DNA from: Vulcanimicrobiota bacterium
GTDB taxonomy: Bacteria; Vulcanimicrobiota; Xenobia; Xenobiales; JADMJV01
Assembly (NCBI GenBank): GCA_050250895.1
Contig: JBFWNU010000002.1
Span: 887,659-951,658, forward strand
Length of the DNA: 64,000 nt
Reading direction: 5' to 3'
The notes beneath the pieces were generated by a model. The model had not been told where the DNA came from, made no database searches, and saw only the letters and a program-made list of their open reading frames with translations. Each line of letters starts with the position of its first letter. Position 1 is the first letter of the stretch. Shown piece by piece: positions 3,012 to 14,468 of this stretch. A program made the position numbers and the translations under genes.

Positions 3012-4403
3012 TCAGGCACGCACTAGCAAGAAGCGCTCGAGTTCGTCCAGCGAGGTCTCGCCCTGAGCGGCTAGCGCGAGGGTCTGGGTCTCGAGGTCAG
3101 AGGGCTCGAATTCGCCCTCGAAGACCCGAGCAGTGAAAGGCAGCGACTCGGCCAGCAACACGCGGCCGCGATAGCCGCTCTGCTGGCAACGGTCGCAGCC
3201 CACGGCCCGGCGAAATTCGCGAGGCAGGGAGAAGTCTACCCGTGCCTGCAAGCTCTCGAACTCGGCCTCGGACAAAGGCTGGGGCTGGCTACAATGGGGA
3301 CACAGCTTGCGCACGAGTCGCTGCACCAGGATGAGTTCCACGGTCTGGGCCAGGGCGCGCGCCGAGCCAGCCAGCACCGACAGGCGAGAGAAGACGTCGC
3401 GGCAGTCGCGGCCGGCCATGCCGGCCACCACCAGGGCGCCGCGCAGCGCGGCCGTTTGAGCGGCCTCGAAGGCCTCGGGGTCGGGCAAGGCGGCTAGACC
3501 GATCACGTCGGGGTCGCTGCGCATCAGGGCTCGAAGGGCCGAGGCTTGGCTGCGGTTGGCTCCGGTCACGCTGGCCAGACTCACCTGGGTGGCCCAGGGT
3601 AGGGTCAACCAGGCCGGGTTCTCGATGGTCATCAGCTTAAGGTTGGGGCCGGCCACTTCGCCCAGGCAGGCGGCCAGCAACGAGTCGCGGCTCTCGTCGC
3701 CGGCGATGATGACCAGGCGGGCTCGCTTGCGCAGAGCCTGGCGCAAGCGAGCCAGGTCGACCTGGCGCAGGCCGAAGGTGGAAAGATCGGGCTGGCTCTG
3801 GTCGCGGTTCTGGAGCTTGACCGTCAGCGTTTCGCCCTGGGCGGACGGCAAGAACGACACGCGCAGGTCGAGTAGACCGCGGTCGGTCTCGACCAGGATG
3901 CGTCCGTCCTGGGGCAGGCTGGTTTCACGCACATCGCAGGCGGCGGCCCGCTTCCACTGTTCAACTAAGGGTGCCAGCAAGCGGTTGTCGAGGCGCGCTA
4001 GCAACTGCAGTTCGCCATCGACGCGGCCGCGTAGCCAGCACTGGCGCTCGGGACCCTGGCCGGTGTAGCAGCGGCCAAGATGAAGACTGTCGGCCTGGCG
4101 CTCGAGGGCCACTTTGAGCATGCGGTTGAAGGCGTCGAGCAGGGGGTCGGCCGTCCGTGGGGGCGGCCCGGCCAGGAGCGACTCGAGCTGGTCGAGGAAG
4201 GGACCAGGGTCGGCCAGCAGGTCGATGTGGGGCGCTTGGCCGCGCAGGAAGCGGTCGAGTTCTGCTCGCTCGAAACGCCACTGGCGCCCGATCTTGCGAG
4301 CCGACAGCCGGCCTTCTCGCAGCCAGCGATAGAGGGTGTTACGGGTAGTGTTGAGGGCCTCGGCGGCCTCGGCCATGGTGAGCAGATCCTCTTTCATGTG
4401 CAT
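3012..4403 (-). CDS. Excisionase-type HTH fused to a GspE/PilB-like ATPase domain with degenerate Walker motifs
   Basis: N-terminal LLTMAEAAEALNTTRNTLYRWLREGRLSARKIGRQWRF. PilB motifs LPQDGRI, DLRVSFLP, RSDPDVI, QRLVRKLCPHC, GCDRCQQSGYRGR. Confidence 0.8.
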   Translation of the reverse strand: MHMKEDLLTMAEAAEALNTTRNTLYRWLREGRLSARKIGRQWRFERAELDRFLRGQAPHIDLLADPGPFLDQLESLLAGPPPRTADPLLDAFNRMLKVALERQADSLHLGRCYTGQGPERQCWLRGRVDGELQLLARLDNRLLAPLVEQWKRAAACDVRETSLPQDGRILVETDRGLLDLRVSFLPSAQGETLTVKLQNRDQSQPDLSTFGLRQVDLARLRQALRKRARLVIIAGDESRDSLLAACLGEVAGPNLKLMTIENPAWLTLPWATQVSLASVTGANRSQASALRALMRSDPDVIGLAALPDPEAFEAAQTAALRGALVVAGMAGRDCRDVFSRLSVLAGSARALAQTVELILVQRLVRKLCPHCSQPQPLSEAEFESLQARVDFSLPREFRRAVGCDRCQQSGYRGRVLLAESLPFTARVFEGEFEPSDLETQTLALAAQGETSLDELERFLLVRA

Positions 4404-4668
4404 AGTGTATCATAGTTATATTGATGCGCTAAGTGATATTTGGACTAGGGCCAGTCCCCCGGTCCGCTCGTCGACAAACCCGATTCCAGGCCGCCGCCAA
4501 AGACATTCCGGGCCAGCTTCAGCCTTTCAGAGTTTTTTCCGGGGGCGCGAATAGACTCTTCCACAGGTGAAAGAAGCGCGGGCCATGCGTTTTCAGGATC
4601 CTTTAATTCGATTCAGATAAATGTTTCAAACGAGAGTGCCACAACTCGTTAACTGTAGGAGGACTTGG

Positions 4669-7605
4669 ATGGATACCATCAACGCTCACGGCAACAACTG
4701 GAATATCAGAGGAACCTTCCCGAAAGCGGCGCCGGCGGCTTCTAAAGCCGTTTCCACGGTTCCGGGTGATCAGGTGTTCTTGAACTCGAACACCCACGCG
4801 GCCGCCTTGAGCATCCCCACCACCTTGCCCGTGACCAGCAAAGCTGCTGTAGTGGCGGCCCCGGTCGCACCCGCCGGTCCTCCGGTCAACACGGCTGCCC
4901 CCATCACGATGGTGGTAGAAGGCCCGACGGCGCCAACCAATAGCGCCGCCATGTCGGCCCCGGCCCCGGTGCTGCGCGCCGCGGCCACCCAGTTTGATGC
5001 CGTCGAGATCATCGATGCCGAGAGCGATGACGATTCGGTCTGGATTCCCTCCGCCTCCGCCACTCTGGTGAACACCGCCAACACCCTCGAGAATCTGAGC
5101 AAGCTGGCCGCCGCGGTCAACTCGAAAGAGTTCACCCTGCTCACCGGCGAAACCGGCGCCGGTAAGACCGCGCTGGTCAAATACCTGGCCCACATGACCC
5201 GCAACCGTCTGCGTCAGGTCAACATGCACGACCAGACCGACGAGGTCGAACTCTTCGGCGGTTATAAGCCGGCTCCCGATGGTGGCTTCGTGTGGCGCGA
5301 CGGCACCATTACCTCGGCCGTCCGCAACGGTCACTGGCTGCTGCTCGACGAGATCAACCTGGCCGACCAGGCGGTGCTCGAGCGCATGAACCCGCTGCTC
5401 GACGGTGAGGGCCACATCGTGCTCACCGAGAAAGAAGACAAAGAGCGGGTCAAAGTTCATGGTCGCACCCGCGTCTTCGCCACCGAGAACCCGGCCAGCT
5501 ACGCCGGCCGTAAAGAGCTGTCGGCGGCGATGTTCGACCGCTTCCAGCGCAAGATTTACATGCGGCGTCTGCCCGACACCGAACTCAACGAAGTGCTCAA
5601 GAAGGACTTCTCGGCCTCCCTGATCGTGGGCAAACTGGGCGAAAGCTTCCCTGACCTCGACAAAGAAACCAAGTCGGTTCTGCGCGGCAACGTGCTCAAC
5701 AGCCCCGAAGCCGTCACCCCCACCTCGGTGGTGGCCCTCGAAGCCGCTTTCGGTAACAGTGACAAGAACGCTCTCAAAGAGCTGCACCGCCAGTTCGCCG
5801 CCAATCCGAGCCTGGATGCGATGCCCATCGCTCCTAAAGCCAAACAGGTGCTGGAAGCCTTCCAGGGTATCCTGGCCAAGCCGCCGGCTCCCGTCATTAA
5901 CGACAAAGTCTTGTTGCAGATGTCGATTCTGCACAACGAGATGGTCAAAGCCTCCGAAGGCCGCGTAGTCGGTAAGAAGGGCGGTCCTTACCCATTCACC
6001 TTGCGCGACCTGCTCAAGCTGGCCAAGCGCATCAAACACTACAGCGAGGTGAGCCCCGAGCTCAACCAGTTCCAACTGGCCTGGCAGCAGGCCCGCGACA
6101 TCTATCGCGAGCGTTTCATGGAAGAGGCCGACCAGCAGACCGTCGAGCACTTCTTCCAGCTTTCGTTTGGTGACCCCAGGGTCAACCGTGACGGCGCTCC
6201 GCCCGAAACCAACGCCTCCATCACGATGGAGAGAATTGGCAACAAGATTCGTATCGGCGATACCAGCCTCGAGATCAATCCCCACGGCGGCGATTATGTC
6301 CCCGATGCCAGCGCCAAGCTGATTTCTACCCCCGGTACGGTCAAGAAGCTGACCCGTCTGGCCCGCGCTGCTGCCCTCGACGAGCCGGTGCTGCTGGTGG
6401 GACCGACGGCTGCTGGTAAGACCTCACTGGTTCGCTGGCTGGCCCACGAGACCAATAACGAGTTCCGCCGCGTCAACCTGAGTAACCACACCGATACCAG
6501 CGAGCTGATCGGCGGCTACTTCCCGGCTGTCGAAGTCGACTTCGACAAAGCCAACACGGCCATCAAAGCCATCGAAGGCAACGCCGATTTGAGCAAGCGC
6601 TTCCAGGCCACCCTGGACAAGATGGGCGACGAGGTCAAGAAAGGCGTCGAGATTCTCAAGAGCAATCCGAGCCTCGAGGGCGACGCTGCCAAAGAAGCTC
6701 AGAAGACGGTCCGCGACGCCCTCGGCCGTATCCTCGGCGACGACCAGTTGCGGGTAGCCTTCGAAGACCTCGAAGACACGGGCGCCGAGTTGCGCAACGG
6801 TCTGGAAGGTTCGTTCCGCACCGTGCCCGGTAAATTCGAGTGGCGCGACGGTATCATCATCGAAGCCATGAAGAAGGGTCAATGGATCGTCCTCGACGAG
6901 ATCAACCTGGCCGAGCCGGCTGTGCTCGAGCGCCTCAACTCGCTGCTCGACAGCGACCGCGCCGTGGTGCTCACCGAGCACCTGGGCGAGCGCATTAAAG
7001 CCGACTCGCGTTTCCGAGTCTTTGCCACCATGAACCCGGCTACCAACGACTACGGCGGACGTAAAGAACTCTCGCCGGCGATGCGCAACCGCTTTACCGA
7101 GCAGTGGTTCCCAGACATCAACGACCGCTCCGAGATTCTCCATATCGCCAATTCCTGGGTGGAAGACTTCAAGAGCGACGCTCAAGAGTATCTCAAAGGC
7201 TTCGATGCCAACACCGCCAGTCGGGAAGACAAGCTCAAAGCCCTGTCCGCTCAAGCCTTCTTGAAAGAAGACACCAGCCGGCTGGCCGAAGCCGTTACCG
7301 ACTTCCAGATCACCATCCGGGCCAAGGCCAAGCGGCAGAACGGGCAGACTCCCGAGTTGCCCACCGCCAAAAAGGACGGTTATCACTACACCTTGCGAGG
7401 AATGCGGGCCTGGCTGAAGTATATCAAGAATAACGTGGGACGCCCGATGCAGAACCCCGACGACCCGAAAGACCGTTCGCTGCGCAAAGACCTGAAAACG
7501 GTTTTCAACGAAGGCGTCGAAGGTTACTACGTGGACGGCCTATCGCGAGCTGAAGATCAGCAGACCGTGAAGTCCCTGGGCGAAAGCCTGGCCAACCGAC
7601 TGTAG
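4669..7605 (+). CDS. Tandem two-module AAA+ ATPase of the MoxR/dynein/midasin clade (midasin-like)
   Basis: RBS AGGAGG before ATG 4669. Two Walker A motifs (GETGAGKT, GPTAAGKT), two LDEINLA Walker B motifs, FATxNP sensor 1 and GRKELSxAMxxRF arginine fingers. Confidence 0.9.
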   Translation: MDTINAHGNNWNIRGTFPKAAPAASKAVSTVPGDQVFLNSNTHAAALSIPTTLPVTSKAAVVAAPVAPAGPPVNTAAPITMVVEGPTAPTNSAAMSAPAPVLRAAATQFDAVEIIDAESDDDSVWIPSASATLVNTANTLENLSKLAAAVNSKEFTLLTGETGAGKTALVKYLAHMTRNRLRQVNMHDQTDEVELFGGYKPAPDGGFVWRDGTITSAVRNGHWLLLDEINLADQAVLERMNPLLDGEGHIVLTEKEDKERVKVHGRTRVFATENPASYAGRKELSAAMFDRFQRKIYMRRLPDTELNEVLKKDFSASLIVGKLGESFPDLDKETKSVLRGNVLNSPEAVTPTSVVALEAAFGNSDKNALKELHRQFAANPSLDAMPIAPKAKQVLEAFQGILAKPPAPVINDKVLLQMSILHNEMVKASEGRVVGKKGGPYPFTLRDLLKLAKRIKHYSEVSPELNQFQLAWQQARDIYRERFMEEADQQTVEHFFQLSFGDPRVNRDGAPPETNASITMERIGNKIRIGDTSLEINPHGGDYVPDASAKLISTPGTVKKLTRLARAAALDEPVLLVGPTAAGKTSLVRWLAHETNNEFRRVNLSNHTDTSELIGGYFPAVEVDFDKANTAIKAIEGNADLSKRFQATLDKMGDEVKKGVEILKSNPSLEGDAAKEAQKTVRDALGRILGDDQLRVAFEDLEDTGAELRNGLEGSFRTVPGKFEWRDGIIIEAMKKGQWIVLDEINLAEPAVLERLNSLLDSDRAVVLTEHLGERIKADSRFRVFATMNPATNDYGGRKELSPAMRNRFTEQWFPDINDRSEILHIANSWVEDFKSDAQEYLKGFDANTASREDKLKALSAQAFLKEDTSRLAEAVTDFQITIRAKAKRQNGQTPELPTAKKDGYHYTLRGMRAWLKYIKNNVGRPMQNPDDPKDRSLRKDLKTVFNEGVEGYYVDGLSRAEDQQTVKSLGESLANRL

Positions 7606-7621
7606 GGCCTTGGAGGCATCG

Positions 7622-10600
7622 ATGAATAACATCTCCGCGAATACACCCCAACCGCCCCAGCGGCGGGCGGCCATCGGCTCGGTCACGGCCAACCTCAACA
7701 AATCGGGCGCGACCAGCCCGGGCCAGACCGACACCGTTCACCTGGCCGGTAGCTGGTGGAACAAGATCTTCGGCAAGGAAGAGCAACCGGCTCAGCCGGC
7801 CCCTCCGGCCCAGAACAATACCCCGGCTCCCGCCGGTCCGGCCCAACCGGCTCCGGCTCAGCCGGCACCTGCTCCCATTCCCACCCCGCCCAAGGGCGGC
7901 GCCAAGCCGACCGACGCCGAGGTGACCAAGCAGGTGCGCGACCGCTTGCAGCAGATCGAGGCCGTGGCCAAGACCATCGGCGGCGACATGGGGACCACCG
8001 TGACCGCCGGCGACGAGTGGAAGCACACCTTCCATCCCGACGGCTCGCACGAGATCACCATCCGCCAGCAAGACCTGGTGGACAAGAGCGAAAACTACGC
8101 CATCGGCAAGGTGCTGGGCGAGGCTGCCAAAGCTCGCTACTCGCACTGGTCGGTGGACCAGCAGCACGCCCAGGACGAAGGCTACATGTACCTGCAGAAC
8201 TCGGTGGAGACGGCTCGCACCGGCGAGATCCTCTCCAGCCGCCTGCCAGGTGCTCCCACCTTCATGGACGATGTCTACGAGCAAGACCTCAAGCACCCCA
8301 CCGAGTGGTATCAAGAGCGCATCGCCGACAAGTTGATGCGCGAGGCCGAAGGCAAGCTCACCCGTGAACAGGCCGAAGCAGTGGCCGCCCAGGTCGGTTC
8401 TAAAGTTCCCAAGCACGTCCAATACGGCAACGGCGTCATGCACAACTGGTTCTATGGCGAGAAAGATCCCGCCATGGATGCCGATGTGGCTAACGCTTTC
8501 GACCGCACCAAGGGTGATATCGAGCAAGCCTACAAGATCAAGCGTTCGGCCCTCGAGCGCGACCTGACCCCGGTCGAGATCAAAGAGCAGGCCGAAGAGT
8601 CCTCGAAGATCGTGCGGGAGAAGCTGTGGCCCGAGTACCAACGTCTGGTCGAACAAGACATCGCCGATTTGTCCAAGGCCCTCCAGGGCGAGCAGAGCCC
8701 CGAGCAGCAGGCCAACCAGAATCAGCAGTCGGGTCAGTCGGGTCAATCCGGCCAGTCCGGGCAGTCGGGCGAGATGAGCCCCGAGCAGATGGCCAAACAG
8801 CAGCAGATGCAGCAGCAGAAGCAGCAGGACGCCAATCAGAATCTTTCCCAGGCTGGCCAGCAGATGCAAAAAGCCGGCCAGAAAATGCAGCAGAGCCAAC
8901 AGCAGAACGGCCAGCAGGCCGGTCAGCAGATGGAGCAGGCGGGCCAGCAGATGCAGCAGGCCGGCCAGCAGCAGGGCAAACCTGACGCCAACTCTCTGCA
9001 GCAGGCCGCTCAAAATATGGAGCAGGCCGCTAACCAGATGCAGCAGATGGGTCAGCAGCAACAGCAGATGACCCCCGAGCAGATGCAGCAGATGGCCGAT
9101 CAGATGAAGGCCCAGCAGGGGATGCAGAATGCCGCCCAGCAGGCCATGCAGCAGAACCCCGGCGCCGTCGAGCAGGCCGCCAATCAGGCTCTCGACCAGA
9201 TGAAGAATAATCCTGACATGGCTCGCTCGATGCAGCAGTCGATGACTCAGGAAATGCAAGATGCGATGCGCAACAACCCCGAGATGGTCGAGCGCGCCAT
9301 GGAACAGCTCCAGCAGAACCCCGAGCTGATGAAGAAGGCCATGGAGCAGATGCAGCAGATGCAGCAGGATAATCCTGAGATGCAAAAGCAGATGCAAGAG
9401 CTCCAGCAGCAGATGCAAAAGGACCCGGCCAAGGCCCAGGAGCAGATGCAGAAAATGGCCGAGCAGATGCAGCAGAACGCTCAGATGAAAGAGCAGATGC
9501 AGCAGATGCAAAACCAGATGGCCAACGATCCGCAGAAGGCCGCCGAGCAGATGCAGCAGCTGGCCGACCAGATGCAGCAGAATCCCGCCATGAAGGACCA
9601 GATGCAAAAGCTCGCCGAGCAGATGCAGAAGGACCCTCAGGCGGCTCAGCAGCAGATGCAACAGCTGCAAGAGCAGATGCAGCAGAACCCGCAGATGGCC
9701 GAGCAGATGCAAAAGCTGGCCGAGCAGATGCAGAAAGATCCGCAGGCCGCCCAGCAGCAGATGCAGCAGATGCAGGATCAGATGCAGCAGAACGCTCAGA
9801 CCAAAGAGCAGATGCAGCAGCTGCAAGAGCAGATGCAAAAAGATCCGGCCAAGGCTCAAGAAGCCATGCAAGAGCTCGGCAAGCAGATGGAGCAGAACCC
9901 CGAGCTCAAGAAGCAGATGCAGCAAGCCATGTCCGAGGCTCTCCAGAAAGATCCTCAGGCTGCCCAGCAGGCCGCCGAGAAGATGATGGACGACCCGGCC
10001 ATGCAGCAAGCCATGCAGAACGCCATGAAGAACAATCCGGCGATGCAGCAGGCGATGCAGGATGCTTTAAAAGACAACAAGCAACTGCAAGACGCGATGA
10101 GCCAGCAGATGCAGAACAACCCCGACCTGATGAAACAGGCCGCGGAGCAGATGCAGAAGGATCCCGCCGCCGCCCAGCAGGCCATGGACCAGCTCAAGGA
10201 CCAGATGACCCCCGAGCAGCAGCAGGCCATGCAGCAGGCGATGGAACAGGCCAAGCAAGACCCGGCCAAAGCCGCCGAGGCGATGCAGCAGGCCATGGAG
10301 CAGAACCCCGAGCTCAAAGAGAAGATGCAGCAGCAGATGCAGCAGCAGATGCAGCAGCAGCTCAAAGACAATCCCGAGCTCGCCAAGCAGGCCATGGAGC
10401 AGCTCAAAGACAACCCGGCCATGCAGAAGGCGATGCAAGAAGCTCTGCAGGACGAGCTCAAGAAGAATCCCGAGGCCCTCAAGAAAGCCGCCGAAGAACT
10501 CGAGAAGAACCCCGAGGCCAAGAAAGCCGCCGAGGAGGCTCTCGAAAAGCAGCTCAAAGAGAATGGTCAGCCCGAAGAAGCCAAGCAGGGCAAAGCCGGC

Positions 10601-12217
10601 GAGCAGTCTGAAGAAGACAAAGCCAAAGAAGGCGGCAAGGGCCCCAAGATGCCCAACATGCCGAACATCCCCGGCATGCCTCCGATGGGCCAGAACGACA
10701 ACAAGGACGCCAAAGAAGCTGGCGACAAGATGAAAGAAGCGGCCGACGCGATGAAAGAGGCCGCCCAGAATCCCGACAAAGCCGGCGAGAAGATGCAAGA
10801 AGCCGGCAAAAAGATGCAAGAAGCCGGCAAGAAGCTCGAAGAGATGGGCAAACAGTCCGGCGACAAAGAGATGGAGCAGGCCGGCAAAGACATGCAGCAG
10901 GCCGGCCAGGAGATGCAAGAGGCTGGCGAAAACCAGCAGCAAGCCGATGGCCAGCAAGGCGAAGGCCAGCAGGGTGAGGGCCAGGAAGGTCAGCAGGGTC
11001 AGCAGTCGGGCAAGCCCGGTCAGCAGTCCGGCAAACCTGGTCAGCCCGGTCAGCCCGGTCAGCAGGGTGGCGAGCAGGGCGGGGAAGGTCAGCAGTCTCA
11101 GGGTGCTGAGCAGACCGGCCAGAACCCGCCTGCCAAAGACCTGCCCAAGATGAGCGAAAAAGAGGCCAAAGAGCTGGCTGAGAAGATCATGCAAGAGCTC
11201 GACAAAGACCTCAACGAAAAGCTCGAGACCGAACAGAAAGACGCCCGCCGCGAAGAAGGCGAGAAGGCTCAGGACCAGCGCGACATCCAGAAATCGCAGG
11301 CCCAGCCTCCCCGCGAAGACATCGGCAACCAGCGCACCAACGGCCAGTCTCAGGGCGGCTCGACCTCAGAGATCGACCTGGCCGACCTGGAAGATTTGGT
11401 CCGTCAGAAGCAAGACCTGGCTGCCAAGTTCGAGGCCATTCAGACCGATTACGACAAGTATCATATGAACGTGGCTCCGATGGCCGACGAACTGGCCGGC
11501 GAGCTCTCTAACTTCCTCAACGAGAACACCCGGCCCAAGTATGAGCACACCACTCACAAGACCGGCAAGAAGTTGAGCATCAAAGCGGCCATGCGCAGCG
11601 AAGCCAACTATGAGCGCACGGGCGTGTGGGACCCGGACGTGTGGTTGCGTCGTACCAACCCCAGCAAGCGCGGCCACAAGTTCATGTTCGTGATGGACGA
11701 GTCGGGCTCGATGGGCTCGAAGGGCGACCCTAAGTGGGACAACTCCATCAACGGCCTGATCATGGGCGGCGAGGCCCTCGAGTCGCTCGACATCGAGTTC
11801 GGCATCGTCGGCTTCTCGGACCGGCCCCTGGTTCACAAAGAACTGCACGACAAATATCCCGAGAAGCGCCAGGCGATTCTGGCCGACATCGAGCGGGCCC
11901 CTCACGGCTCGACCAACGACTCGGCTGGTATCCGCACCGCGATGGAGATGATCGAAAAAGGCGCCGACCCTGAAGATGAAAAGGTCATCATCGTGCTCAC
12001 CGACGGTGAGGGCGATACGGCCGGCGTCAAGAAACTGCTCGAGGAGGCCCGCGAGAAGAAGATCCACATTATCGGCGTGGGCATCGGCCCCGGCACCGAC
12101 TTCGTCAAGCAGGTCTATGAGCACCACATCGTGGTCGAGAAGCTCGAGAACCTGCCCATCGAACTGGCCGAGCTGATTCAAGAGCGCATCGAAGGCGAAT
12201 CGAGCGAGTTCTACTAG
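7622..12217 (+). CDS. Large vWA/MIDAS protein with degenerate metallopeptidase-like N-domain and Q/M-rich repeat stalk
   Basis: RBS GGAGG. MIDAS elements DESGS, GSTND and VLTDG. About 800 aa of Q/M/E/K-rich helical and G/Q low-complexity sequence. Confidence 0.9.
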   Translation: MNNISANTPQPPQRRAAIGSVTANLNKSGATSPGQTDTVHLAGSWWNKIFGKEEQPAQPAPPAQNNTPAPAGPAQPAPAQPAPAPIPTPPKGGAKPTDAEVTKQVRDRLQQIEAVAKTIGGDMGTTVTAGDEWKHTFHPDGSHEITIRQQDLVDKSENYAIGKVLGEAAKARYSHWSVDQQHAQDEGYMYLQNSVETARTGEILSSRLPGAPTFMDDVYEQDLKHPTEWYQERIADKLMREAEGKLTREQAEAVAAQVGSKVPKHVQYGNGVMHNWFYGEKDPAMDADVANAFDRTKGDIEQAYKIKRSALERDLTPVEIKEQAEESSKIVREKLWPEYQRLVEQDIADLSKALQGEQSPEQQANQNQQSGQSGQSGQSGQSGEMSPEQMAKQQQMQQQKQQDANQNLSQAGQQMQKAGQKMQQSQQQNGQQAGQQMEQAGQQMQQAGQQQGKPDANSLQQAAQNMEQAANQMQQMGQQQQQMTPEQMQQMADQMKAQQGMQNAAQQAMQQNPGAVEQAANQALDQMKNNPDMARSMQQSMTQEMQDAMRNNPEMVERAMEQLQQNPELMKKAMEQMQQMQQDNPEMQKQMQELQQQMQKDPAKAQEQMQKMAEQMQQNAQMKEQMQQMQNQMANDPQKAAEQMQQLADQMQQNPAMKDQMQKLAEQMQKDPQAAQQQMQQLQEQMQQNPQMAEQMQKLAEQMQKDPQAAQQQMQQMQDQMQQNAQTKEQMQQLQEQMQKDPAKAQEAMQELGKQMEQNPELKKQMQQAMSEALQKDPQAAQQAAEKMMDDPAMQQAMQNAMKNNPAMQQAMQDALKDNKQLQDAMSQQMQNNPDLMKQAAEQMQKDPAAAQQAMDQLKDQMTPEQQQAMQQAMEQAKQDPAKAAEAMQQAMEQNPELKEKMQQQMQQQMQQQLKDNPELAKQAMEQLKDNPAMQKAMQEALQDELKKNPEALKKAAEELEKNPEAKKAAEEALEKQLKENGQPEEAKQGKAGEQSEEDKAKEGGKGPKMPNMPNIPGMPPMGQNDNKDAKEAGDKMKEAADAMKEAAQNPDKAGEKMQEAGKKMQEAGKKLEEMGKQSGDKEMEQAGKDMQQAGQEMQEAGENQQQADGQQGEGQQGEGQEGQQGQQSGKPGQQSGKPGQPGQPGQQGGEQGGEGQQSQGAEQTGQNPPAKDLPKMSEKEAKELAEKIMQELDKDLNEKLETEQKDARREEGEKAQDQRDIQKSQAQPPREDIGNQRTNGQSQGGSTSEIDLADLEDLVRQKQDLAAKFEAIQTDYDKYHMNVAPMADELAGELSNFLNENTRPKYEHTTHKTGKKLSIKAAMRSEANYERTGVWDPDVWLRRTNPSKRGHKFMFVMDESGSMGSKGDPKWDNSINGLIMGGEALESLDIEFGIVGFSDRPLVHKELHDKYPEKRQAILADIERAPHGSTNDSAGIRTAMEMIEKGADPEDEKVIIVLTDGEGDTAGVKKLLEEAREKKIHIIGVGIGPGTDFVKQVYEHHIVVEKLENLPIELAELIQERIEGESSEFY
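9350..9990 (+). repeat. Coding tandem repeat of about 6 x 35 aa (105 bp), unit QMQQNPxMxEQMQKLAEQMQKDPQAAQQQMQQLQE
   Basis: Period visible in the translation as alternating NP/DP helix breaks. Boundaries approximate. Confidence 0.75.
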
Positions 12218-12218
12218 G

Positions 12219-12665
12219 ATGACGCGGGATCTTCCGGCGCTGCGCAAGCAGCTCGAGGAGTTTCTGCGGCGCTACGGCAACGACGGTGAACCCGTCGCTC
12301 TGCTGGGCGGCGAGTCTCTGCCTGACACGCTTGCTTTCGAAGCCGTGGTGATGGCCTATCCCAAGCGTCGGGTGGTGCACCTCGACGGCACCCTCAGTCT
12401 CGACGAGGATGCCGTGCGAGATGGACTGGTGAAGGCCTTCGAGAAGAACCATATCTTGCTGGTCACGCTGACCCGCAAGGTGGGGCTCGAGGTCTTCAAG
12501 CCCCTCGAGAAGTTCCTGGCCGAAGGCAAGCTCGACGTGCTCAAGCCCTGGGGCTGGACCACCGCCGAGCCCTCCGACGATTTTCGCTTGATCATCCACT
12601 CGCGCCCAGGCTCGTTTCCTTTCGACGAGAACGTCAGCCTGAAGTTCAACCTCGACACCCAGTAG
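12219..12665 (+). CDS. Small protein resembling a catalytically dead single AAA module
   Basis: Starts 1 nt after the vWA stop. GEPVALLGG..., RDGLVKAFEKNHILLV and DDFRLIIHSRP are collinear with motifs of the upstream AAA modules. Confidence 0.65.
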   Translation: MTRDLPALRKQLEEFLRRYGNDGEPVALLGGESLPDTLAFEAVVMAYPKRRVVHLDGTLSLDEDAVRDGLVKAFEKNHILLVTLTRKVGLEVFKPLEKFLAEGKLDVLKPWGWTTAEPSDDFRLIIHSRPGSFPFDENVSLKFNLDTQ

Positions 12666-12668
12666 CTT

Positions 12669-13946
12669 CCGGGTTTGCTCCAGGATTTCGCGGGAGCACG
12701 TCCCCCCGGCCGGTCAGGCCGGGTTTGCTCCGAGTTTTCGCGGGAGCATGCTCCGGCTTTTCGCGGGAGCACCGTCCTCGGGCCGGTCAGGCCGGGTTTG
12801 CTCCGAGTTTTCGTGGGAGCACGCTCCGGCTTTTCGTGGGAGCACCGCCCGCGGGCCGGTCAGGCCGGGTTTGCTCCAGGATTTCGCGGGAGCACCGCTC
12901 GCGGCCGGTCAGGCCGGGTTTGCTCCGAGTTTTCGCGGGAGCATGCTCCGGCTTTTCGCGGGAGCACCGCCCCGGGCCGGTCAGGCCGGGTTTGCTCCGA
13001 GTTTTCGCGGGAGCATGCTCCGGCTTTTCGCGGGAGCACCGCCCTCGGGCCGGTCAGGCCGGGCTTGCTCCGAGTTTTCGTGGGAGCACGCTCCGGCTTT
13101 TCGTGGGAGCGCCGCCCTCGGGCCGGTCAGGCCGGGCTTGCTCCGAGTTTTCGTGGGAGCACGCTCCCGCTTTTCGTGGGAGCAACGCCCGCGGGCCGGT
13201 CAGGCCGGGTTTGCTCCAGGATTTCGCGGGAGCACCGCCCCCGGCCCGGTCAGGCCGGGTTTGCTCCGAGTTTTCGCGGGAGCATGCTCCGGCTTTTCGC
13301 GGGAGCACCGCCCTCGGGCCGGTCAGGCCGGGCTTGCTCCGAGTTTTCGTGGGAGCATGCTCCCGCTTTTCGTGGGAGCAACGCCCGCGGGCCGGTCAGG
13401 CCGGGCTTGCTCCGGCTTTTCGCGGGAGCACCGCCCCGGGCCGGTCAGGCCGGGTTTGCTCCGAGTTTTCGCGGGAGCATGCTCCGGCTTTTCGCGGGAG
13501 CACGTCCCCCCGGCCGGTCAGGCCGGGTTTGCTCCAGGATTTCGCGGGAGCACCGCCCTCGGGCCGGTCAGGCCGGGCTTGCTCCGAGTTTTCGTGGGAG
13601 CACGCTCCGGCTTTTCGTGGGAGCGCCGCCCTCGGGCCGGTCAGGCCGGGCTTGCTCCGAGTTTTCGTGGGAGCACGCTCCCGCTTTTCGTGGGAGCAAC
13701 GCCCGCGGGCCGGTCAGGCCGGGTTTGCTCCAGGATTTCGCGGGAGCACCGCTCGCGGCCGGTCAGGCCGGGTTTGCTCCGAGTTTTCGCGGGAGCGCTC
13801 CGGCTTTTCGCGGGAGCACCGCCCCCGGCCGGTCAGGCCGGGTTTGCTCCGAGTTTTCGCGGGAGCATGCTCCGGCTTTTCGCGGGAGCACGTCCCCCCG
13901 CCCGGTCAGGCCGGGCTTGCTCCGAGTTTTCGTGGGAGCACCGCCC
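12669..13946. repeat. Intergenic modular tandem array of about 20 units (49-74 bp) made of REP/BIME-like hairpins
   Basis: 19 copies of CCGGTCAGGCCGGG plus a partial first unit. Each is followed by one or two GCTCC-N11-GGAGC hairpins and a short C-rich linker. Confidence 0.95.
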
Positions 13947-14021
13947 GGCGAGCCCGGGCCACGGCCGGCCCACGACCGAAGCGAAAGAAGACTGAACGGC
14001 GCCAACAGAGAAGAGGCGGCC

Positions 14022-14468
14022 ATGAAACCCGTTATCAATCTTGACGAACTCGAGATGGTCCACGAAGACAGCGGCCAGAGCTATGGCATCATCTCGGACA
14101 ACATCGGAGCCAAGAAGCTGGGCTACAACCTGTCGGTGTTGCCCAAAGGGGCTGACTCGGTGTATTTTCACAATCATCACGTGGCCGAGGAGATGTTCTT
14201 CATCCTCGAGGGTGAAGGGATTCTGCGCTTTGGCGACCAGGAATACCCGCTGCGCCCTAACGACGTGATCGCCTGCCCGCCGGGGGGTAAAGAAGTCGCT
14301 CACCAGATTCGCTGCACCAGTGATACACCCTTGAAGTTTCTGGCGCTGGGCACTCGCGAGACCAGCGAAATCGTGGAGTATCCCGATGTCGGTCGCGTGA
14401 TGGTCGCCTCGGGTCCCGAATTCCACCGCAACTTGCGTCTGGTCTTTCAGGCCGACAGCGCTCTTTAG
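14022..14468 (+). CDS. Cupin domain protein
   Basis: GAGG RBS before ATG 14022. Motifs IGAKKLGYNL, FHNHHVAEEMFFILEGEG, AHQI and EIVEYPD. Confidence 0.9.
   Translation: MKPVINLDELEMVHEDSGQSYGIISDNIGAKKLGYNLSVLPKGADSVYFHNHHVAEEMFFILEGEGILRFGDQEYPLRPNDVIACPPGGKEVAHQIRCTSDTPLKFLALGTRETSEIVEYPDVGRVMVASGPEFHRNLRLVFQADSAL

Follow-up and report, generated by a model that had tools for sequence, protein, structure and literature searches.

A three-gene cassette of a Vulcanimicrobiota bacterium as a probable prokaryotic relative of midasin

A stretch of 64,000 nucleotides (nt) from a soil-type Vulcanimicrobiota bacterium (GenBank assembly GCA_050250895.1, contig JBFWNU010000002.1, positions 887,659 to 951,658; hereafter the window) carries three adjacent genes, A, B and C, which probably encode a MoxR-type AAA+/vWA remodelling machine that is prokaryotic but belongs to the midasin branch, a reading given a probability of about 0.7. 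Midasin (Mdn1/Rea1) is the AAA+ motor of about 4900 amino acids (aa) that acts in pre-60S ribosome maturation in eukaryotes. The initial annotation of the window described the cassette as a three-gene operon resembling a split midasin. The coordinates of the three co-directional plus-strand genes and their spacing of 16 and 1 nt are confirmed from the open reading frames (ORFs), and the motifs that had been quoted (FEWRDG, WIVLDEINLA, LERLNSLLD, FATMNP, GGRKELSPAMRNRFTE, GGPYPFTLRDLLK, TGKKLSIK, VWLRRTNPSKR and DESGSM) are all present in the translations, with their midasin counterparts visible in alignments to solved midasins.

The product of gene A consists, in order, of an A/P/T-rich N-terminus, an N module, a long lid, a C module and a short lid. 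It matches Pfam AAA_5 in three stretches (2.5e-51), AAA_3 is also matched, and the overlapping match to bpMoxR is weaker (1.5e-9). In addition, the family AAA_lid_7 ("Midasin AAA lid") is matched at residues 437-517 (2.7e-9, 37.7 bits against a cut-off of 22.7). Among PDB sequences (phmmer) midasin is matched best (6or5_A, E 4.7e-160, with up to 107 bits in a single stretch), and further matches are to NorQ (3.8e-10, 41.6 bits), CbbQ (9.6e-9) and dynein (about 1e-6). A search of 1.84 billion cluster representatives gave 8395 matches at E<=1e-3 and 1107 at E<=1e-30, and most of the best 150 have the length of a midasin, 4400-5700 aa. Automatic naming at the Joint Genome Institute (JGI) calls five relatives of A of 706-844 aa, and a 736-aa cluster, "midasin", so the resemblance is already visible to annotation pipelines. 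Two modules per chain were found in all 20 homologues examined, and a word-based search for short relatives of the N module returned five proteins. Walker A, Walker B, sensor-1 and the arginines are intact in both modules and invariant across 15 aligned homologues, and both modules are therefore predicted to be catalytically active.

A phylogeny of the modules had been proposed as a check on the midasin affinity. The AAA cores of 20 bacterial A proteins, of the giant fused proteins described below and of 12 diverse six-module eukaryotic midasins were aligned with MAFFT E-INS-i (93 rows, 184 columns kept), together with three CbbQ_C-bearing or related short proteins and eight AAA_5/MoxR proteins from the host genome. 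In a careful IQ-TREE analysis (LG+C20 with posterior mean site frequencies, PMSF, rooted on MoxR), both A modules fall together with midasin AAA1-6 in a midasin-type module clade (support 97/86), outside which lie the three CbbQ-like proteins, three other host AAA_5 proteins and three MoxR proteins. A second alignment that included single-module relatives recovered this clade again (99), now with three Verrucomicrobiota single-module proteins in it. Within the careful tree the bacterial N modules are monophyletic (100/99) and so are the bacterial C modules (99/99), which argues that the tandem is ancestral to the family. The eukaryotic AAA1 to AAA6 clades are each supported at 99-100 (eight diverse midasins each) and contain no prokaryotic module. 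Thus, the claim that the AAA modules are closer to midasin than to the MoxR and CbbQ types is borne out by both the PDB E-values and the clade, and nesting of the modules inside a CbbQ clade was not seen in these trees, from which dynein, CobS, NorQ proper, RavA and GvpN are absent.

The lids provide evidence that is independent of the tree. A hidden Markov model (HMM) of the lid that follows the N module (residues 335-560) gave 100 matches in 95 six-module eukaryotic midasins, all of them after odd-numbered modules (17 after AAA1, 5 after AAA3 and 78 after AAA5) and none after an even one, while an HMM of the C-terminal lid gave three weak matches in eukaryotic midasins. Among the midasin modules, AAA5 and AAA3 match the N module best, and the lid and C module together are colinear with the AAA5 lid and AAA6. 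The lid evidence favours a correspondence of the N module with the odd, and of the C module with the even, modules of midasin. A further candidate for a shared derived character has been weakened. The core HMM splits in the 95 midasins solely in AAA2, AAA4 and AAA6, near profile position 60-79, and the C module encoded in the window carries an insert at position 77; such an insert occurs in 4 of the 20 bacterial homologues, with a shorter one about ten positions on in seven and none in nine. Two metagenomic proteins (P0047 and P0048; 1526 and 1551 aa) have two midasin-type modules in the reverse arrangement, the insert-bearing module (position 70-75) coming first, and about 890 residues of unknown content precede these modules.

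The second line of evidence comes from the C-terminal region of gene B, in which Pfam VWA is matched at residues 1359-1495. A single-sequence search of the PDB with this region returned midasin first (6qt8_A, 2.7e-7). A profile built from nine B homologues matched midasin at 5.9e-20, 1.8e-16 and 8.8e-16, in alignments that cover the pre-MIDAS segment; the next matches were a mussel thread protein (4e-11), integrin I domains (about 1e-9) and CobT (9e-5), and NorD was not among the best 60 of 97 matches. The same profile matches 91 of 99 eukaryote-size midasins, with the alignment starting about 75 residues before DxSxS. When it was run against the host genome, the best other vWA protein scored 2e-13, over the core alone. 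The earlier suggestion that the pre-MIDAS segment is closer to midasin than to ordinary MoxR/vWA pairs therefore holds, as midasin comes first in single-sequence and profile searches alike.

These data bear on the alternative that genes A and B encode an ordinary MoxR-type chaperone with its vWA partner, active in metal insertion or enzyme activation like NorQ/NorD, CbbQ/CbbO or CobS/CobT, and that the likeness to midasin is superficial. The general architecture, an AAA_5 ATPase gene followed by a vWA gene, would suit such a role, as would the weak NCBIfam matches of A to GvpN (71.9 bits against a cut-off of 266.8) and CobS (30.7 bits) and the matches of B homologues to Pfam VWA_CoxE. Nevertheless, this explanation is very unlikely. 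The midasin-type clade takes in the modules and leaves out CbbQ-like and other AAA_5 proteins, and the MIDAS profile places midasin at least nine orders of magnitude above any other solved vWA domain. Moreover, no client enzyme gene is conserved beside the cassette, and the tandem modules, the midasin lid and the six-module fused relatives are without parallel in NorQD, CbbQO or CobST.

Gene B starts with about 90 low-complexity residues, which are followed by an N-terminal domain of a different kind. In 6 of 11 aligned B homologues this domain contains an HExxH motif (HEGSH, HESAH or HESGH) and then NAVEDPRVNN; both histidines have been lost in the other five, the window copy and its same-genus relative included. 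HExxH is also intact in the fused proteins P0072 and P0074. An AlphaFold2 (AF2) model of the domain (pLDDT 84.6) comprises a helix, a three-stranded sheet and the motif-bearing helix, and the top rows of a VIA-align search are mostly zinc peptidases (ZMPSTE24, Ste24, selecase, jannalysin, BepA and DUF885; Z 4.3-5.5). On the strength of the motifs in 6 of 11 homologues and of these mostly peptidase fold matches, the domain is read as zincin-like and as inactivated in the window copy, which, with GEAAK in place of HExxH and both histidines gone, is predicted to be unable to bind zinc in the usual way. No match to the domain was found in Pfam, NCBIfam, PHROGs or PADLOC, and there were 0 PDB sequence matches at E<=1. 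The ESM Atlas gave only leads below 0.9 for B (phage clusters, with CobT in 20% of one), which were not used as evidence.

Between the zincin-like domain and the MIDAS domain lies a spacer rich in Q (27.5%), A (12.5%), M (10.8%), E (9.9%) and K (9.5%), with a net charge of -40. The initial annotation had proposed a stalk here: a long segment ahead of the MIDAS domain does exist, but it is a low-complexity spacer of tandem heptad repeats, with periods of 21 nt and 105 nt (7 and 35 residues). The spacer accounts for a local AT skew of +0.43 to +0.49. Its length is highly variable, since B ranges from 743 to 886 aa in seven relatives but reaches 1719 aa in a further one. In two loci (L023, 5515-8047, and L027, 5340-8070) B occupies two overlapping frames, one ORF for the N-domain and another for the MIDAS domain, interrupted within the spacer; a genuine split of the gene, a frameshift and misassembly of the repeats are all conceivable causes.

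Gene C, which had been noted simply as a small third gene, is indeed present, and its content can now be given as a degenerate AAA+ domain. The AF2 model, built with nine homologues, is of good confidence (pLDDT 88.2, pTM 0.84), and Foldseek returned 140 PDB matches at E<=1e-3, of which all those listed are AAA+ domains, among them RuvB (2.8e-6), CbbQ (5c3c_B, TMq 0.66), NorQ, MCM, NtrX, ClpB and dynein. GGESLPDT and ILLVTL fill the Walker positions, and neither a lysine at Walker A nor an aspartate or glutamate at Walker B is conserved in the nine homologues. Gene C is therefore predicted, from sequence and model, to encode a nucleotide-dead AAA+ domain incapable of the usual binding or hydrolysis. 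No family match was found in Pfam, NCBIfam, PHROGs or PADLOC; hhalign places the protein in register with the N module of A, weakly (E 0.021), a word-based search returned three relatives, and the ESM Atlas leads, all below 0.9 (dynein AAA_9 fragments), were not used as evidence. Complex prediction of A (residues 141-985) with C scored 0.48, against 0.20 for the best control, with runs agreeing in at least 81% of contacts and a partner pLDDT of at least 77. The mark thus attained was reached by 58 of 80 solved complexes and by 2 of 110 mismatched pairs, and at scores of 0.60 or below by 7 of those 80 solved complexes and by both mismatches, so that the prediction lends weak support to a contact. 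The protein is probably an accessory that docks on A.

The host genome (9.5 Mb in 17 contigs, 99.6% complete) has a single copy of A. Homologues of A (E<=1e-20) were found in 13 of 201 sampled genomes of the phylum, the host included, corresponding to 9 of 171 high-quality genomes and 9 of 80 genera. A was present in all 12 loci that were fetched; the B N-domain follows it in 11, and in the twelfth the contig ends right after A. The MIDAS domain was found in all nine loci that reach far enough. The co-occurrence of the genes elsewhere is thus confirmed for A and B, which are linked in every locus extending far enough, and the occurrence of A in 13 of 201 genomes together with the conserved order of A then B identifies these as real genes rather than chance ORFs. 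Of the nine loci that reach the MIDAS domain, six have gene C alongside, three of them with C on the same strand and three with C convergent. Depositors label close relatives as Eremiobacterota, Vulcanimicrobiota, Xenobiia and Armatimonadota. The labels conflict in places, as three close relatives (L054, L056 and L057) are labelled "uncultured Burkholderiales bacterium" or "Bacillota bacterium" and others Eremiobacterota or UBP9.

This distribution raises a further possibility, namely that the cassette serves in conflict or defence, as an accessory system of the NTP-dependent MoxR-vWA-effector kind, in which the vWA protein senses an invader and the peptidase is the effector, the window copy being decayed or repurposed. 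Ternary conflict systems built from MoxR and vWA proteins are on record, in parts of the account of Kaur, Burroughs, Iyer and Aravind (2020; PMC7159879). The distribution of A is patchy (13 of 201 genomes, 9 of 80 genera), and the flanks are unconserved within the genus, since a same-genus genome (L033) shares A and B alone with the first 22 kb of the window; no genes other than A, B and C are conserved across the 13 loci. An effector-like HExxH domain kept in 6 and lost in 5 of 11 homologues, a repetitive spacer of highly variable length and an RHS-repeat gene 2.7 kb upstream also suit this view. However, PADLOC (PADLOC-DB 2.0) detects nothing for B or C and generic AAA matches for A (E>=4e-9), no beta-propeller, FtsH or other typical third component is adjacent, and no phage or mobile-element genes were seen in the examined flanks. 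A defence system is therefore an unlikely description of the whole, and it concerns the biological role, being compatible with a mechanical model. The patchy spread, the unconserved flanks, the variable tether and the repeated loss of the peptidase motif do fit an accessory or conflict role.

If the cassette is a midasin-branch machine, three A chains would form a six-module ring, by analogy with Rea1/Mdn1 and with NorQD and CbbQO, and the gene B protein would attach to this ring. B would be the working arm, with the MIDAS domain tethered by the length-variable heptad spacer to the zincin-like domain. The metal ion of the MIDAS domain would capture an acidic residue of a target protein, and ATP-driven movement of the ring would then pull on or remodel the target through the tether. 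In relatives with an intact HExxH motif the target may also be cut, and the gene C protein would be a non-catalytic accessory of A.

Several points weigh against assigning the cassette to the midasin branch with such a mechanism. There is no counterpart of the roughly 1700-aa midasin linker, and a zincin-like domain that is absent from 99 of 99 eukaryote-size midasins stands in its place; "split midasin" is consequently a misleading description, the modules also lying outside all six eukaryotic module clades. The fold matches behind the zincin reading are middling (Z at most 5.5), and Foldseek found no match to the domain at E<=1e-3. A proteolytic step is excluded for the window copy, in which the peptidase motif is dead. 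Gene C is not an obligatory subunit, since three of nine loci lack a recognised copy and, of the six with one, three carry it on the opposite strand, and the score of the A and C prediction could reflect likeness to solved AAA rings, since both partners are AAA folds. The host genome yields no Pfam match to the NLE ligand domain (PF08154), so the target logic of the eukaryotic motor is not transferable. Finally, three RNA libraries of a single study contain contigs (95-100% alike) that bridge the A/B and B/C junctions, which is a weak hint of expression and no proof of transcription; among sequencing runs the shares of the stretch were 0.07-0.22, with no run holding half, and parts of the operon lacked cover, to which no meaning is attached.

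A further line of evidence comes from fused prokaryotic relatives. Four proteins, P0071 (7557 aa), P0217 (7592 aa), P0073 (6708 aa) and P0074 (4005 aa), each contain six AAA_5 modules, after which the HMM of the B N-domain matches at 4.5e-36, 4e-26, 7.4e-8 and 1.1e-13, respectively. All four have HExxH motifs near this B-like domain and a C-terminal midasin-type MIDAS domain, and the fused forms keep the order of six modules, B N-domain and MIDAS. The same design is seen in partial form in P0072 and P0090, and the B N-domain HMM matches all six fused prokaryotic proteins searched but none of 99 eukaryote-size midasins. P0090 is labelled Candidatus Omnitrophota, and P0074 bears the unverified label of a Thermoproteota archaeon. 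Among GTDB species genomes, the fused, colinear arrangement is also encoded as one unbroken frame each on two Omnitrophota contigs (212 kb and 153 kb) and on a contig labelled Planctomycetales, and six-module single ORFs occur in loci L059, L061 and L062. The best-scoring large proteins in the cluster search with gene A are these fused prokaryotic forms and not ordinary midasins. In the six-module giants odd modules cluster with odd and even with even, which suggests that their rings arose by triplication of a pair.

Giant single-ORF proteins of the fused type are found in L063 as well as in L059, L061 and L062. P0071, P0073 and P0217 have about 2800-4000 extra N-terminal residues of unknown content, and P0074 about 730. 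Four contigs of Verrucomicrobiota metagenome-assembled genomes (MAGs; L066, L067, L068 and L070) encode a single-module AAA protein with the Walker A sequence GETAASKT and, downstream, a weakly B-like vWA gene; the modules of L067, L068 and L070 are those placed, on a long stem, within the midasin-type clade (99), and L066 was left out of the tree.

The deep order of the modules is unstable. FastTree joins the bacterial N and C modules (0.716), the careful tree joins all prokaryotic modules with eukaryotic AAA2/4/6 (100/97), and a quick tree from the other alignment places the bacterial modules together (84) and the eukaryotic odd modules together (91). Neither monophyly of the six eukaryotic modules (delta lnL 4.3, p-AU 0.349) nor a clade of all C-type and even modules from bacteria, giants and eukaryotes (delta lnL 0.01, p-AU 0.505) was rejected by the approximately unbiased (AU) test, where lnL is the log-likelihood. 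It may tentatively be proposed that eukaryotic midasin arose from a prokaryotic stock represented by the A-B pair and its fused six-module relatives. The evidence allows a history in which the two-module unit and the tethered MIDAS arm were already prokaryotic, and triplication and fusion produced the six-module ring; it is allowed by the cost of just 0.01 lnL for the C-type/even clade, by the odd-only matches of the N-module lid and by the odd/even triplication of the giants. Eukaryotic monophyly of the six modules is, however, not rejected either. If this history is true, the ring-motor architecture shared with dynein would be a prokaryotic invention. The suggestion in the initial annotation that the cassette has a bearing on the origin of midasin has gained substance, as the inter-module lid matches odd-module lids in 100 of 100 cases and fused six-module prokaryotic forms exist.

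The converse history, in which the bacterial genes derive from a horizontally transferred fragment of a eukaryotic midasin (for example AAA5-AAA6 plus MIDAS), would make the cassette uninformative on midasin origin. The affinity of the N module to AAA5 and AAA3, the colinearity of the lid and C module with the AAA5 lid and AAA6, the concentration of lid matches after AAA5 (78 of 100), the patchy bacterial distribution and the unrejected monophyly of the eukaryotic modules would all agree with such a transfer. It is nonetheless highly improbable. Each eukaryotic module clade (99-100) excludes all prokaryotic modules, so any transfer would predate the diversification of the sampled eukaryotes, and the family spans MAGs labelled Eremiobacterota, Armatimonadota, Omnitrophota and Planctomycetales and one labelled Thermoproteota. 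In addition, the zincin domain is present in none of the 99 eukaryote-size midasins, and the prokaryotic six-module forms appear to have arisen by their own triplication of an odd/even pair.

The features of the cassette are collected in Table 1. The gene A ORF is open from an in-frame ATG at 4621, and the start is placed at 4669 because this ATG is preceded by AGGAGG at a distance of 6 nt and the alignment with the same-genus homologue begins at residue 17. The gene B ORF is open from a TTG at 7610, with an ATG at 7622. A sigma-70 consensus scan found no promoter 5' of gene A.

Table 1. Features of the cassette, and of the DNA directly 3' of it, in window coordinates. Residue numbers count from the upstream in-frame ATG at 4621 for gene A (P0001) and from the TTG at 7610 for gene B (P0002).
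Feature	Position	Strand	Description or basis
Shine-Dalgarno AGGAGG	4657-4662	+	6 nt 5' of gene A ATG, read from sequence
Gene A	4669-7605	+	978 aa, tandem AAA+ ATPase of midasin (AAA_5) type
N module core, residues 149-333	5065-5619	+	module HMM envelope
N module Walker A GETGAGKT	5146-5169	+	
N module Walker B LLLDEINLA	5338-5364	+	
N module sensor-1 FATENP	5476-5493	+	
Lid and inter-module segment, residues 335-560	5623-6300	+	counterpart of lids after odd midasin modules
GGPYPFTLRDLLK	5980-6018	+	in inter-module lid of gene A
C module core, residues 566-842	6316-7146	+	module HMM
C module Walker A GPTAAGKT	6400-6423	+	
87-aa insert in C module	6547-6804	+	HMM splits at profile position 77
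C module Walker B IVLDEINLA	6886-6912	+	
C module sensor-1 FATMNP	7021-7038	+	
C-terminal lid of C module, residues 845-994	7153-7602	+	alignment of homologues
DGYHYTLRGMRAWLK	7375-7419	+	in C-terminal lid of gene A
Gene B	7622-12217	+	1531 aa: degenerate zincin-like domain, repeat spacer, MIDAS domain
B N-terminal domain, residues 91-365	7880-8704	+	275 aa, zincin-like
HExxH position of B N-domain	8117-8131	+	reads GEAAK
NAVEDPRVNN position of B N-domain	8198-8227	+	reads NSVETARTGE
B spacer, residues 366-1235	8705-11314	+	870 aa; composition and repeat analysis
MIDAS/vWA domain	11315-12214	+	300 aa, with midasin-type N-terminal extension
TGKKLSIK	11561-11584	+	MIDAS region of gene B
VWLRRTNPSKR	11639-11671	+	MIDAS region of gene B
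DESGS	11696-11710	+	MIDAS region of gene B
Gene C	12219-12665	+	148 aa, stand-alone degenerate AAA+ alpha/beta domain
Gene C P-loop position LLGGESLPDT	12300-12329	+	no Lys
Gene C Walker B position ILLVTL	12453-12470	+	no acid
IIHSRPGSFPFD	12591-12626	+	conserved in gene C
REP-like hairpin array	12673-13930	.	about 33 repeats, directly 3' of gene C

The flanking genes encode a divergent T2SSE-family ATPase with a helix-turn-helix (HTH) domain, an RHS-repeat protein, a cupin, a patatin, CheB and a hybrid kinase. On the opposite strand upstream of the cassette lie the RHS-repeat gene (81-2003) and the gene for the T2SSE-family secretion ATPase, which has an N-terminal HTH_17 (3012-4403); neither adjoins the cassette in the same-genus genome. 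The array of repetitive extragenic palindrome (REP)-like elements comprises 1.25 kb of a 32-nt hairpin (GCTCC..TTTTCG.GGGAGC) at spacings alternating between 23 nt and 50 nt. Several copies precede TTTTCG and score as terminator-like on the plus strand. A spurious ORF of 597 aa (12675-14468) spans the array and enters the real cupin gene.

Single-module MoxR proteins have been regarded as the closest prokaryotic relatives of midasin and dynein, in parts of two earlier accounts (PMC3495828, PMC7159879), and the six-module protein as having arisen early in eukaryotic evolution, according to the first of these (PMC3495828). What is new here is a prokaryotic family that appears, by sequence comparison, nearer to midasin than MoxR, NorQ or CbbQ. 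It has a midasin lid, a midasin-type MIDAS arm and a tether, split between two proteins, with two modules, in the present cassette, and fused, with six modules, in MAGs of Omnitrophota and Planctomycetales. The literature searched yielded no account of a prokaryotic midasin-like family. The origin of the ring-plus-MIDAS-arm design thereby becomes testable, as does the question of what a midasin-like machine does in a cell without a nucleolus. Moreover, the coupling of arm to ring can be approached with proteins of 978 and 1531 aa (B being 743-886 aa in relatives) instead of one of about 4900 aa. The presence of a MIDAS arm together with a zincin-type peptidase domain in most relatives suggests capture-pull-cut machines, a combination that was not seen in the known MoxR-vWA systems compared.

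Among known systems, NorQ and CbbQ are single-module, homohexameric ATPases, and in NorQD and CbbQO the ring is expected to be the motor and the vWA protein the target binder. The cassette shares with NorQ/NorD and CbbQ/CbbO the succession of an AAA_5 ATPase gene and a gene ending in a MIDAS-bearing vWA domain. It differs from them in the two modules of gene A, in the far weaker match of A to NorQ than to midasin (3.8e-10 against 4.7e-160), in the position of CbbQ-like proteins outside the module clade and in having no client enzyme gene linked to it. Judged on sequence, the cassette belongs to the broad MoxR-vWA class, which also includes RavA-ViaA and in which a helix-2-insert-clade AAA+ protein is encoded beside a vWA/MIDAS protein, and not to NorQD, CbbQO or CobST. 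With the MoxR-vWA conflict systems, as portrayed in parts of PMC7159879, it has in common a MoxR-clade ATPase, a vWA protein, further effector or regulatory parts and a patchy accessory distribution. In contrast to those systems, its bpMoxR match is weak and no propeller, FtsH or other third component is adjacent; tandem midasin-type modules and the MIDAS extension do not feature in the midasin passages of PMC7159879. The B N-domain resembles M48-type and minigluzincin peptidases (ZMPSTE24/Ste24, BepA, selecase and jannalysin) in its predicted three-stranded sheet followed by the HExxH helix (in 6 of 11 homologues) and in a downstream glutamate (NAVED), and differs in that the fold matches are weak and both histidines are gone from the window copy.

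Midasin acts on the pre-60S particle via the ubiquitin-like (UBL; NLE/MIDO) domains of Rsa4 and Ytm1, and its linker of about 1700 aa (stem, middle and top) is structured and lies between AAA6 and a D/E-rich tether. The cassette and midasin share AAA_5 modules of one clade, a midasin-type lid after the first module of each pair, a long low-complexity tether ahead of the arm, and a MIDAS DxSxS motif with the N-terminal extension TGK(K/R)L...WLRR..PSKR; the fused prokaryotic relatives also share the order of six modules and then an arm on one chain. The cassette differs in having two modules per chain and its arm on a separate protein, a tether of Q/M/A/E/K heptad repeats that is not D/E-rich, the extra, dead AAA+ protein encoded by gene C and modules that belong to none of the six eukaryotic module clades. 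By analogy, it would be a machine related to midasin and working like midasin, yet not a midasin.

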